Source: Escherichia coli (lineage in GTDB: Bacteria > Pseudomonadota > Gammaproteobacteria > Enterobacterales > Enterobacteriaceae). From it: a DNA stretch of 64,000 nucleotides. Positions 8,787 through 11,461 of this stretch are shown here, one piece after another; position 1 is the stretch's first letter, and each line of letters begins with the position of its first letter. Where the stretch lies: the NCBI RefSeq assembly GCF_036507355.1, contig NZ_AP027878.1; one strand, 5' to 3'. Both the position numbers and the translations under genes were made by a program. The notes beneath the pieces are model-generated. The model ran no database searches. It was given only the letters and a program-made list of their open reading frames with translations, and was not told the origin of the DNA.

Positions 8787-8851
8787 CTACCTGATAGTGC
8801 AAAAATAACCTGTTCTGGCATGTTATCGTGTGCTTAAGGTAAATGTGTAGT

Positions 8852-8880
8852 GGCTTGCTTTAGGTTATGGAAGCAAGCCA
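8852..8880. terminator. Bidirectional stem-loop between hxr and isaA
   Basis: GGCTTGCTT-loop-AAGCAAGCC hairpin followed by TTTCC, between convergent genes. Confidence 0.45.
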
Positions 8881-8897
8881 TTTCCTATTAAAGTAGA

Positions 8898-9518
8898 TCA
8901 AAAAACTTTAATTTTGGCGTTTCGCTCACCACATATTGAGCACTTTAGCCGATTTTTTAAGTCTTCCAGAGTCAATCCTGAAGCTACATATTTTTTAATG
9001 TCTCTTTGAGAGAGTATCACTGGTTCACGGAACCTATAACCGCCGCAGAGATGTATTATCATTATCTCAGAATCATTTTCTAACCAGTCATTAAGAGTGT
9101 TGTGTGGTTTAGAAAGTCGCTCAATATCCAAACGCCATTGTTGGATTTCATTACTGTCCCAGTCGAGATTTAGTTTAGCACGTTGGGCAACGAATCGATG
9201 TTTTCCTCTGTTAATACTAGGTTCGTAGTCTTTTCGTTGATCGGTAGTAAGGTCCTCTTCGTATAGAAATGAATCATCGTTTTTATGAGTGGGTTCAAAA
9301 ATTACTTCAATAAAACTTGGCTCATACGCGTTAAAACTTTTTTTTCTTATGAATATCCCTTGTGTACCACTCCCGTTTAAATCAGCACAAAAATTAACAT
9401 CTATTCCTCGACGAAGTGCGAAAAAATACCTATGTTCCCTCATGGCCACAGCTAATTTGGCTATATCTATAAGGTTGTGTATTTTATCAGAATATGTATT
9501 CATGAGGCTTCCAAGCAA
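8898..9518 (-). CDS. isaA: IsaA (IS1-associated), hypothetical protein in an AT-rich block
   Basis: 206-aa ORF; local GC visibly lower than flanks, suggesting foreign origin. Confidence 0.5.
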   Translation of the reverse strand: MLGSLMNTYSDKIHNLIDIAKLAVAMREHRYFFALRRGIDVNFCADLNGSGTQGIFIRKKSFNAYEPSFIEVIFEPTHKNDDSFLYEEDLTTDQRKDYEPSINRGKHRFVAQRAKLNLDWDSNEIQQWRLDIERLSKPHNTLNDWLENDSEIMIIHLCGGYRFREPVILSQRDIKKYVASGLTLEDLKNRLKCSICGERNAKIKVF

Positions 9519-9627
9519 ATATCATGACAAGCATAAAGTGTTAAAGTGATGTTACGCATCTTAACAAAGTGACTCTTGATTAATTTTAATTCGCCCTATC
9601 TTGCTTGTCTAACCATCATTGCATATT

Positions 9628-9636
9628 CAGAGGGCA
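9628..9636. repeat. IS1 target-site duplication, left copy (CAGAGGGCA)
   Basis: Same 9-mer directly flanks both IS1 ends. Confidence 0.85.
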
Positions 9637-9691
9637 GGTGATGCTGCCAACTTACTGATTTAGTGTATGATGGTGTTTTTGAGGTGCTCCA

Positions 9692-9967
9692 GTGGCTTCT
9701 GTTTCTATCAGCTGTCCCTCCTGTTCAGCTACTGACGGGGTGGTGCGTAACGGCAAAAGCACCGCCGGACATCAGCGCTATCTCTGCTCTCACTGCCGTA
9801 AAACATGGCAACTGCAGTTCACTTACACCGCTTCTCAACCCGGTACGCACCAGAAAATCATTGATATGGCCATGAATGGCGTTGGATGCCGGGCAACAGC
9901 CCGCATTATGGGCGTTGGCCTCAACACGATTTTACGTCACTTAAAAAACTCAGGCCGCAGTCGGTAA
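9692..9967 (+). CDS. insA: IS1 InsA
   Basis: 91 aa [43 protein letters not shown]... Confidence 0.95.
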
Positions 9968-10389
9968 CCTCGCGCATACAGCCGGGCAGTGACGTCATCG
10001 TCTGCGCGGAAATGGACGAACAGTGGGGATACGTCGGGGCTAAATCGCGCCAGCGCTGGCTGTTTTACGCGTATGACAGGCTCCGGAAGACGGTTGTTGC
10101 GCACGTATTCGGTGAACGCACGATGGCGACGCTGGGGCGTCTTATGAGCCTGCTGTCACCCTTTGACGTGGTGATATGGATGACGGATGGCTGGCCGCTG
10201 TATGAATCCCGCCTGAAGGGAAAGCTGCACGTAATCAGCAAGCGATATACGCAGCGAATTGAGCGGCATAACCTGAATCTGAGGCAGCACCTGGCACGGC
10301 TGGGACGGAAGTCGCTGTCGTTCTCAAAATCGGTGGAGCTGCATGACAAAGTCATCGGGCATTATCTGAACATAAAACACTATCAATAA
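9886..10389 (+). CDS. insB: IS1 InsB frame (transposase made as InsAB' by -1 frameshift)
   Basis: 167-aa ORF ...[54 protein letters not shown]... Confidence 0.9.
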
Positions 10390-10404
10390 GTTTGAGTCAT
10401 TACC

Positions 10405-10413
10405 CAGAGGGCA
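10405..10413. repeat. IS1 target-site duplication, right copy (CAGAGGGCA)
   Basis: Identical 9-mer to 9628-9636. Confidence 0.85.
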
Positions 10414-10498
10414 AAGAATTACACTTCATGTAATTTATTTCCCTTTAATTTCGTATTATCAGGGTGCTCTCTGGCACCCCTTTTTATTCTAGTAAAAA

Positions 10499-11461
10499 TT
10501 AATCACTTTCCACCTCTTCCGTGGTGTTTTCTTGCAGCTCTGCCAATGCAGTACGACACAGGTTCCTGGCATTGGCTATAGCCACACTTTTGACTTCATC
10601 CGTCATCGTGCAGGTAATGTACTGATCGAGTTCTTCAGCTCGGATGATGCTTTTCCCAATCATAAACTCTATTTGCCAGAGCAGATCGGCATCCATCGTC
10701 AGTATTTCAGCCGGGCCTTCTGGGCCTGCGGGGAAGCAAACATAAGACTGTTTGCCCAGGCCGATAACTCGACAACTTGCTTCAAGAATTGCGCGCTTGA
10801 GGTCTGACTTTGTAACGGAAACAGGTTGATTTTCACCAGTGATTACGCCGTTGACATGGAAGTGGAAGGGCATGTAGCTTGAAATTCGCTCTACTTTCCA
10901 TACGCCAGCAAGCGATCCTTCATGCAGCACAATGGGGGTAACCGCGAGTTTCATCTCACCATATAACTGCTGGCAGATAGCTGGATTGCTGAATACATCC
11001 AAAGGTTCACACTCAAACAGCGGCGCAATCTGCATGAGGTCCATCATGGTCATACCAGGGGTACGAGCAGTAATGAATCTGCGCATTCCAGTATCCATTG
11101 TGCGCCAGATAGCTACACCATGCTTTTTGCTCACTTCTTCAGTAAAGCCAAGGTGGCACATGATGGTTTTTTCGATAGCCAGATCGGAGATAGAAACCTT
11201 TTCGCCTGGCACTCCATCATTATTGATGGTCACTTCGACACTCTGGCCATTACGTAGGCGGTATTGAATGGTTTTAGTATTTTGTGCTGTCATAGTCTTT
11301 TCTCTGCTTAAAAACTGATGTATTGCGCCTTCAGGTGGGTCAGGAATGTTTTCCCACCAGCGAAAGCAATATCTCGGGGTGTTCTTTTCGTGAAAAGCGC
11401 GTGCCATTGCCAACTTTGGCGTTTGTTTGCGAGTTCGTGCTTTTGTCGGCGTCTGGACCAC
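10499..11461 (-). CDS. isaB: IsaB, hypothetical protein
   Basis: 320-aa ORF with GTG start at 11461; an ATG at 11293 (MTAQNTK...) is an alternative start. Confidence 0.45.
   Translation of the reverse strand: MVQTPTKARTRKQTPKLAMARAFHEKNTPRYCFRWWENIPDPPEGAIHQFLSREKTMTAQNTKTIQYRLRNGQSVEVTINNDGVPGEKVSISDLAIEKTIMCHLGFTEEVSKKHGVAIWRTMDTGMRRFITARTPGMTMMDLMQIAPLFECEPLDVFSNPAICQQLYGEMKLAVTPIVLHEGSLAGVWKVERISSYMPFHFHVNGVITGENQPVSVTKSDLKRAILEASCRVIGLGKQSYVCFPAGPEGPAEILTMDADLLWQIEFMIGKSIIRAEELDQYITCTMTDEVKSVAIANARNLCRTALAELQENTTEEVESD

Follow-up and report, generated by a model that had tools for sequence, protein, structure and literature searches.

Does an IS1 element lying between two small genes, close to the Dar anti-restriction operon, interrupt a pair of anti-defence or host-takeover functions, and how did the AT-rich member of this pair come to stand beside it? 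The locus was analysed within a window of 64,000 nt from Escherichia coli (contig NZ_AP027878.1). The window is bacteriophage P1, with 99.9% identity to NC_005856 (P1 records compared over 3.7 kb), and the gene order ssb-isaA-IS1-isaB-hxr is the same as in that record, where isaA-IS1-isaB corresponds to P1_gp017-gp020, with no sequence difference at the locus. The main features are as follows.

8478 to 8786, plus strand: hxr, which ends the darA/ddrB operon and borders the variable slot on the left (NC_005856 annotation).
8898 to 9503, minus strand: isaB, 201 aa, AT-rich (annotation).
9637 to 10404, plus strand: IS1, 768 bp, 99.9% identity to E. coli IS1A.
10499 to 11293, minus strand: core of isaA, 264 aa (PHROG 2326 and PGAP calls).
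11491 to 11979, minus strand: ssb (annotation; Pfam SSB, E = 7e-40), the first gene of a C1-controlled unit running into isaA.

This layout is already known from the annotation of the P1 genome and from published work: isaA-IS1-isaB has been published as the low-GC variable region RD-2 or region 2 (PMC6906374, PMC9603915), and both isaA and isaB were scored non-essential by CRISPRi (PMC10695390). The original prediction found both genes and placed them properly between the Dar operon and ssb, but exchanged their names; in NC_005856, isaB is the AT-rich ORF adjoining hxr and isaA is the ORF adjoining ssb. The sole departure from the P1 record concerns the length of IsaA, given there as 320 aa and here as 264 aa, and the present analysis adds the family distribution and structure predictions. 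A literature search for the function of isaA or isaB returned no functional study, nor did a search on the PDB entries 1r7l and 4pup, and an Rfam scan of positions 8400-12200 found no credible RNA family. The best explanation overall, with a probability of roughly 85%, is the resident IS1 of bacteriophage P1 together with inferred roles for the genes on either side of it.

The composition of isaB is clearly deviant. Its GC content is 36.5%, compared with 47.6% for the window, and falls within the bottom 5% of 606-bp windows; only one of 53 long ORFs has a lower GC3 than isaB (0.292; mean 0.486, sd 0.073). A similar composition was found in the window only for the res/mod restriction genes. The AT-richness expected of the ORF near hxr was thus borne out by quantitative GC and codon-usage analysis, and its proposed horizontal acquisition is supported by the res/mod-like composition and by the scattered family (47-60% identity) described below. 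The TTG start at 9518 first given for this ORF is unlikely; based on annotation and homologue alignment, isaB most likely starts at the ATG at 9503. Several candidate signals flank the gene.

8852 to 8879, no strand assigned: inverted repeat GGCTTGCTT / AAGCAAGCC, with a 9-bp stem and a 10-nt loop, a candidate two-way terminator.
9583 to 9611, minus strand: predicted sigma-70 promoter PisaB (TAGACA, 17-nt spacer, TAAAAT; 10/12 consensus), annotated in NC_005856.
10462 to 10479, plus strand: GC-rich hairpin with a T-run behind it, in the spacer between isaA and isaB, a terminator predicted by the scan and weaker on the minus strand.

These promoters and terminators were called by consensus matching only, and the region has fewer such matches than shuffled sequence. 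The predicted PisaB is located between IS1 and the isaB start codon, 26 bp from IS1, and is undisturbed. The inverted repeat separates the convergent genes hxr and isaB, and GenBank AJ000741 lists a terminator there; it was absent from the terminator scan because the loops in the scan were limited to 3-8 nt. Additionally, the dN/dS of isaB is about 0.2, on few substitutions, and up to 9.5% of synonymous sites differ between its alleles. With a predicted promoter of its own, an AT-rich composition and signs of purifying selection, isaB appears to be a self-contained 'moron' cassette. It shares with phage morons the promoter of its own (as predicted), the flanking hairpin, the deviant composition and the sporadic presence, and its slot holds a lysogenic-conversion porin (nmpC/ompC) in P7-type relatives, whereas its protein differs in matching no known family or fold.

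The other gene, isaA, does not deviate in composition and occurs commonly among P1-like plasmids. Two further features connect it to ssb.

11294 to 11490, minus strand: conserved ssb-isaA spacer, of which 11294-11461 forms the N-terminal 56 codons of the 320-aa IsaA in NC_005856.
11999 to 12015, minus strand: C1 operator Op21/Ossb, with one mismatch to the consensus, overlapping the ssb promoters (annotated in NC_005856 and AF125376).

Matches to the C1 operator consensus number 15 in the window, compared with 0.42 expected by chance. As to the start of isaA, PHROG 2326 covers residues 60-320 of the 320-aa ORF, and PGAP gives the gene 264 aa in IS1-less plasmids. Moreover, the upstream extension (the leader) is interrupted by an in-frame TAG in MH422554, and in SJ46 the same leader precedes a different, Tad2-like gene. 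On these grounds the 320-aa protein was rejected, and IsaA is most likely 264 aa long. In distant elements, isaA lies downstream of a dUTPase gene, and these elements also encode a repressor of C1 type and a Cre-like recombinase of the phage integrase family. It seems that isaA belongs to the lineage genes of P1-like elements and would be expressed along with ssb upon release from C1 repression. Its AlphaFold2 (AF2) model has a pLDDT of 86, and part of it superposes, with low scores, on PD-(D/E)xK/Hjc folds, namely Hjc, splicing endonucleases, VRR-NUC and several restriction enzymes. The conserved D...(D/E)xK catalytic pattern is absent from the IsaA alignment, in which the invariant or near-invariant columns are Y11, Q108, P120, G126, L128, W132, A168, G178 and D223. 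Our best guess is that IsaA may be an early DNA-transaction or counter-defence protein with a partly nuclease-like fold.

Neither protein was recognised by profile searches, in agreement with the earlier remark that IsaA and IsaB have no recognisable motif: there was no Pfam, NCBIfam or PADLOC match to either. Searching Pfam with both proteins plus 33 and 18 family members gave nothing above noise and no anti-defence family, and PADLOC-DB v2 (2023) contained no match for IsaA, IsaB or 33 IsaB family members. Searches of Pfam, NCBIfam, PHROGs and PADLOC with IsaA, IsaB, Hxr and the alignments of their families returned only function-unknown PHROGs and noise-level zinc-ribbon matches. Searches of PDB sequences with single sequences and profiles gave no match for IsaA or IsaB.

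These results bear on the reading put forward in the original prediction, in which both genes are anti-defence or host-takeover genes driven by the operator-controlled ssb promoter, the distal one being polar-blocked by IS1. Several observations speak for it: the Dar anti-restriction operon ends only 110 bp from the locus, the Ossb operator is real, and in SJ46-type elements a Tad2-like gene (Pfam E = 2.6e-22) lies between ssb and isaA, within the ssb transcription unit. In addition, the E. coli islands that contain a truncated homologue of IsaB include an Antirestrict (KlcA-type) gene as well. IS1 exerts polar effects whichever way it is inserted, and it has a terminator-like site on the relevant strand. 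We nevertheless regard this reading as unlikely, because the predicted isaB promoter lies downstream of IS1, the composition of isaB is sharply unlike that of the operon, isaB is found with or without isaA, its family belongs mostly to ICEs and chromosomal islands, and neither protein matches a known Pfam anti-defence family. As to the Tad2-like (PF11195) anti-Thoeris sponge genes, a member neighbours isaA in the SJ46-type ssb unit, but IsaA and IsaB do not match the family, and P1 is without the Tad2-like gene while keeping the shared leader.

The proposed control by an operator-regulated promoter stood for one gene and is not evident for the other: Ossb lies upstream of ssb with isaA directly downstream, whereas isaB has PisaB, a predicted promoter of its own. 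A single operator-controlled unit of isaA and isaB is not supported. The suggested polar block fared similarly, since with the predicted PisaB untouched IS1 could block only read-through into isaB. The main consequence of IS1 would be that isaB is cut off from ssb-isaA read-through and keeps its own predicted promoter.

To what kind of gene, then, does this cassette belong? In total, 56 IsaB homologues were found, scattered over alpha- and gammaproteobacterial mobile elements. Their contexts include an alphaproteobacterial ICE, the end of a Serratia prophage, an ATPase pair in Aeromonas, DISARM-like genes, an Eco29kI restriction-modification system and E. coli CP4-type islands. The family resides mainly in non-phage mobile elements (ICEs and chromosomal islands), and among the viral contigs of IMG/VR it was found in P1-like contigs only. 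This distribution suggests that members of the IsaB family are carried as single-gene cargo by conjugative elements, genomic islands and prophages, in many cases next to restriction or other defence genes.

The structure prediction proposed for the two proteins gave a confident AF2 model for IsaB as well (pLDDT 87, pTM 0.83), with no fold relative in the PDB or BFVD. The invariant motifs shared by the family comprise DLNGSGxQG and FLYEADLxxDxxKDYEP along with a C-terminal cysteine cluster; in this cluster, C153, C188 and C191 are invariant and C158 nearly so. Family profile searches gave weak, noise-level Zn_ribbon_6 matches to this C-terminus. The role of IsaB might be a prophage-expressed host-protection or exclusion function, probably exerted on DNA via the conserved cysteine cluster and a helical motif, a proposal we make tentatively; somewhat more doubtful is the wider idea that IsaB founds an unrecognised single-gene family of conflict proteins acting in stand-alone defence or exclusion, or in counter-defence.

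Comparison with relatives shows that the hxr-ssb interval is a modular exchange region of P1-like phage-plasmids. Depending on the relative, the slot contains isaB and isaA, a Tad2-like gene and isaA, isaA and an unrelated 364-aa gene, isaB and a porin, or a porin alone. Among PLSDB plasmids, hxr is present in 482, isaA in 328 and full-length isaB in 24, and a further 88 records hold only a 109-bp relic of isaB; isaB is thus retained in only 5% of P1-like plasmids, and it is deleted in P7. An obligate two-gene system of isaA and isaB was rejected, as each gene was found without the other.

Such patchy retention could also mean that P1 isaB is a decaying, functionless remnant stranded by module exchange and IS1 insertion. 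In every copy of the P1 lineage the second of the four conserved cysteines (C158) is replaced by Phe, one plasmid of E. fergusonii carries a frameshifted copy, an IMG/VR contig (L046) is without a full-length isaB ORF, and the internal deletion in P7-type elements and the relic plasmids fit the same picture, as does the dispensability of the gene. The P1 copy could accordingly be weakened or decaying, given the Cys-to-Phe change, the frameshift, the P7 deletion and the low retention. However, the ORF is intact in P1 and at least 20 plasmids, the dN/dS is low, every other invariant family motif is kept, and the promoter and ribosome-binding context are retained. We consider a functionless remnant improbable, more so than the shared anti-defence unit discussed above, and continue with isaB as a self-contained cassette into whose neighbourhood IS1 was inserted.

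The insertion itself is well resolved. The IS1 predicted at 9637-10404 with identical 9-bp flanks was found as such, with one copy of the target duplication on each side.

9628 to 9636, no strand assigned: left copy of the 9-bp target duplication CAGAGGGCA, single in empty-site plasmids.
10405 to 10413, no strand assigned: right copy of CAGAGGGCA, 9 bp, read from the sequence.

Compared with chromosomal E. coli IS1A, 767 of the 768 bases are identical, the lone mismatch being at 10393. The element contains the insA (9692-9967) and insB (9886-10389) ORFs, and the insA/insB' frames are joined by a -1 frameshift at the A6C motif (TTAAAAAAC at 9941). Imperfect terminal inverted repeats of about 23 bp are present at both ends. 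In the length of about 768 bp, the near-identity and the 9-bp duplication with a known empty site, as in the gene content, A6C motif and terminal repeats, the P1 copy agrees with IS1A/IS1R of E. coli, and it differs from chromosomal IS1A by the one base in the right repeat. This substitution (T for G, position 12 of the right terminal inverted repeat) was not seen among the best E. coli IS1 matches, and the P1 record (NC_005856) flags the IS1 as 'possibly defective', with the repeat change possibly disabling transposition. Owing to this mutation, the P1 copy may no longer be mobile; the element called intact is so in length, insA/insB and A6C motif, but not in its right terminal repeat.

The uninterrupted locus, which was to be sought in P1-like elements without IS1, was recovered in four natural plasmids. 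Two of them (NZ_CP123268 and NZ_CP123261) are 100% identical over 1137 bp to a reconstructed sequence from which IS1 and one of the two repeat copies were removed, and the other two match it at 98%. As the IS1-less plasmids match the reconstruction with one repeat copy, the alignments identify a simple intergenic insertion, as predicted, with nothing deleted or rearranged. An IS1-less junction differing by more than the loss of IS1 and one repeat copy would have spoken against a simple insertion, and the opposite was found. The target is the AT-rich stretch that separates two accessory genes, and IS1 sits 11 bp away from the boundary where the isaB module joins alternative neighbours; the insertion appears to be neutral for the phage.

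That IS1 itself delivered the AT-rich segment, with isaB as IS1-associated cargo or through an IS1-mediated cointegrate, might be suggested by the names isaA and isaB (meaning 'IS1-associated'), by the AT-rich tract that abuts IS1 directly on both sides and by a P1 fragment with hxr-isaB adjoining IS1B in an IncFIB plasmid, but it was rejected as extremely improbable, because isaB and isaA are joined in IS1-less plasmids exactly as removal of IS1 and one repeat predicts, isaB or its relics occur without IS1 in E. fergusonii plasmids and P7, and one lone IS1 flanked by a perfect 9-bp duplication is what a simple insertion leaves behind.

By themselves, IS1 and the AT-rich 'IS1-associated' genes change nothing, as they are already annotated and discussed. 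The practical gain lies in the corrected gene names and in an IsaA start that probably gives 264 aa, and the natural IS1-less alleles supply the uninterrupted locus for experiments. For P1-like phage-plasmids, the hxr-ssb slot is a site of cassette exchange that takes up a porin, a Tad2-like gene, or isaA/isaB. IsaB, as widespread mobile cargo whose predicted fold has no known relative, and IsaA are cheap, clearly delimited candidates to put through screens for defence and anti-defence in a classic model phage.

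Across 3.7 kb around the locus, the window was 99.9% identical to bacteriophage P1 (NC_005856, AF234172 and OP279344), the records of which run in the reverse orientation. Transferring the annotation of the P1 record (NC_005856) to window coordinates gave the following features.

Features around IS1, in window coordinates (P1 record annotation)
ends at 8488: ddrB
8478-8786, + strand: hxr
8898-9503, - strand: isaB
9637-10404: IS1
10499-11461 (annotated extent, 320 aa), - strand: isaA
11491-11979, - strand: ssb
11999-12015: C1 operator Ossb/Op21, the C1 repressor site upstream of ssb (also a consensus match)
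beyond this operator: lyz

According to this record, the AT-rich ORF adjoining hxr is isaB and the ORF adjoining ssb is isaA, so the two names were reversed in the original prediction; its observation is largely correct but mislabelled, and its interpretation is partly supported. The isaA-IS1-isaB segment has been described as a low-GC variable region, RD-2 (PMC6906374) or region 2 (PMC9603915), and isaA, insA, insB and isaB were all non-essential in a CRISPRi screen (PMC10695390).

The IS1 element occupied 768 bp at 9637-10404, as first proposed, and was flanked by the 9-bp duplication CAGAGGGCA at 9628-9636 and 10405-10413. It carries insA and insB, with the A6C frameshift motif at 9941, and differs from the common chromosomal IS1A by a single base, T for G at 10393, which falls at position 12 in the right-hand terminal inverted repeat. 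A search covering 74,818 IS1 places across 4,970 genomes of E. coli gave no closer match to the P1 IS1 among the matches listed. The element had been called intact, which holds for its coding capacity but, because of the change at 10393, not quite for its ends. Owing to this terminal-repeat change, the P1 record describes the element as 'possibly defective in transposition', and the T at 10393 may leave P1's copy immobile.

To reconstruct the pre-insertion site in silico, IS1 and one repeat copy were removed, and the result was searched against plasmids. It matched the IncY, P1-like plasmids NZ_CP123268 and NZ_CP123261 at 100% over all 1137 bp, and NZ_CP103706 and NZ_CP116167 at 98%. These empty sites bear out a simple intergenic insertion with no accompanying change. 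Moreover, in P7 and in E. fergusonii plasmids, homology to P1 broke off 11 bp right of the IS1 target, placing IS1 almost on a module boundary. We conclude with high confidence that this is P1's long-known resident copy, a simple insertion at a cassette boundary within an accessory exchange region. The insertion was probably neutral. IS1 prefers AT-rich targets, and P1's copy has provided homology for the gain of IS1-flanked resistance determinants.

Quantitative profiling upheld the deviating composition of the AT-rich gene. The GC content of isaB was 36.5% vs 47.6% for the window, within the lowest 5% of 606-bp windows, and its GC3 of 0.292 ranked second lowest among 53 long ORFs (mean 0.486, sd 0.073). 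Of the remaining long ORFs in the window, just two large ones at 23411-28287 (653 and 970 aa, GC3 0.29-0.31) were similarly AT-rich; from position and size we take them to be the type III restriction genes res and mod of P1. Beginning at the hxr stop, the AT-rich tract extended up to IS1 and resumed past it for 94 bp, and isaA was ordinary in composition (GC 47.5%, GC3 0.49).

The interval from hxr to ssb is modular among P1 relatives. It contained a Tad2-like gene and isaA in Salmonella phage SJ46, isaA and an unrelated 364-aa gene in MH422554, a porin alone in P7, isaB and ompC in E. fergusonii plasmids, and IS-disrupted versions in RCS47. In SJ46-type relatives, the gene between ssb and isaA, inside the C1 operator-controlled unit, encodes 281 aa (1709-2554 of the SJ46 locus) and matches the Tad2-like (Thoeris anti-defence 2) domain of Pfam at E = 2.6e-22; it is a candidate anti-defence gene of P1-like phage-plasmids. 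The 364-aa gene of MH422554 (919-2013) fills the hxr-proximal slot instead of isaB; its annotation as 'terminase large subunit' is doubtful because it had no match in Pfam or PADLOC. Among PLSDB plasmids, 482 carried hxr, 328 carried isaA and 24 had isaB at full length, while in 88 further plasmids all that was left of isaB was a 109-bp relic of its 3' end adjoining hxr. In P7 (885-1139 of the P7 locus), the isaB module kept its outer flanks and the gene itself was deleted, which implies that isaB is ancestral in the P7-type lineage and predates the porin cassette arrangement. The flanks kept in P7-type elements include the 109-bp 3' piece and the IS1 target region. In addition, a P1-derived hxr-isaB fragment adjoins IS1B in the non-P1 IncFIB plasmid p13C1065T-3 of E. 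coli (2928-4718), indicating movement out of the phage context.

The most likely isaB start is the ATG at 9503 (201 aa), in agreement with the annotation and the homologue alignment. The 320-aa IsaA of NC_005856 looks over-extended, because PHROG 2326 (264 positions) aligns to residues 60-320 only, PGAP gives a 264-aa product in IS1-less plasmids, the 56-codon leader (11294-11461) precedes a different gene in SJ46, and this leader is interrupted by an in-frame TAG in MH422554. IsaA thus most likely starts at ATG 11293 (264 aa), and the 56 N-terminal codons form a conserved leader within the conserved 197-bp ssb-isaA spacer.

Promoters, operators and hairpins were assigned at the level of consensus matches. 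At 11999-12015, the operator departs from the C1 consensus at one base and overlaps the ssb promoters; 15 sites of such quality occurred in the window vs 0.42 expected by chance. Since isaA lies on the same strand as ssb, directly after the conserved spacer, their co-transcription is plausible. The original prediction placed both genes under the operator-controlled promoter, which may suit isaA, but isaB has its own predicted promoter (9611-9583, 10/12 consensus match; annotated as PisaB in the P1 record), 26 bp past the IS1 end. Accordingly, the suggested polar block of the AT-rich gene could affect only read-through into isaB, as IS1 does not separate predicted PisaB from the gene. A strong hairpin with a T-run between isaA and IS1 (10462-10479) reads best as a + strand terminator, though both bordering genes are on the - strand.

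Close IsaA homologues were confined to P1-like elements. Distant ones (20-45% identity) lie immediately downstream of dUTPase in other elements of ~90 kb that also encode a P1/P7-type C1 repressor together with a Cre-like recombinase of the phage integrase family; these metagenome and genome contigs appear to form a more distant, as yet undescribed branch of the P1-like phage-plasmids. The IsaA alignment contained no conserved nuclease catalytic motif. For isaA, we favour an early role in DNA transactions or counter-defence, expressed with ssb.

IsaB homologues (n=56, 47-60% identity) occurred in Serratia, Aeromonas, Ferrovibrio, Novosphingobium, Dankookia, Roseicella, Paracoccus and E. coli. 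Their alignment showed the invariant motifs DLNGSGxQG and FLYEADLxxDxxKDYEP and a C-terminal cysteine set (C153, C158, C188 and C191), with Phe in the C158 column in all P1-lineage alleles. In every context examined, the gene was solitary, with a sizeable intergenic region on either side, and belonged to the accessory part of a mobile element: an alphaproteobacterial ICE, a Serratia prophage end, E. coli CP4-type islands, and sites adjoining an AAA_15/AAA_21 ATPase pair in Aeromonas, PLD-SNF2 and DUF1156 (DISARM-like) genes, or a Vsr-Dcm-Eco29kI restriction-modification system. In IMG/VR, the family was found in seven contigs only, all P1-like.

Tentatively, at about 35%, isaB may be a protective or exclusion cassette expressed from the prophage. 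The counter-defence role originally proposed is somewhat less probable for isaB. The best circumstantial support for the original proposal is the Tad2-like neighbour in SJ46. Decay to no function is unlikely; dN/dS was ~0.2 among P1-like alleles, with few substitutions. The isaA-IS1-isaB feature is already known, and the IsaB family is its sole potentially new element.
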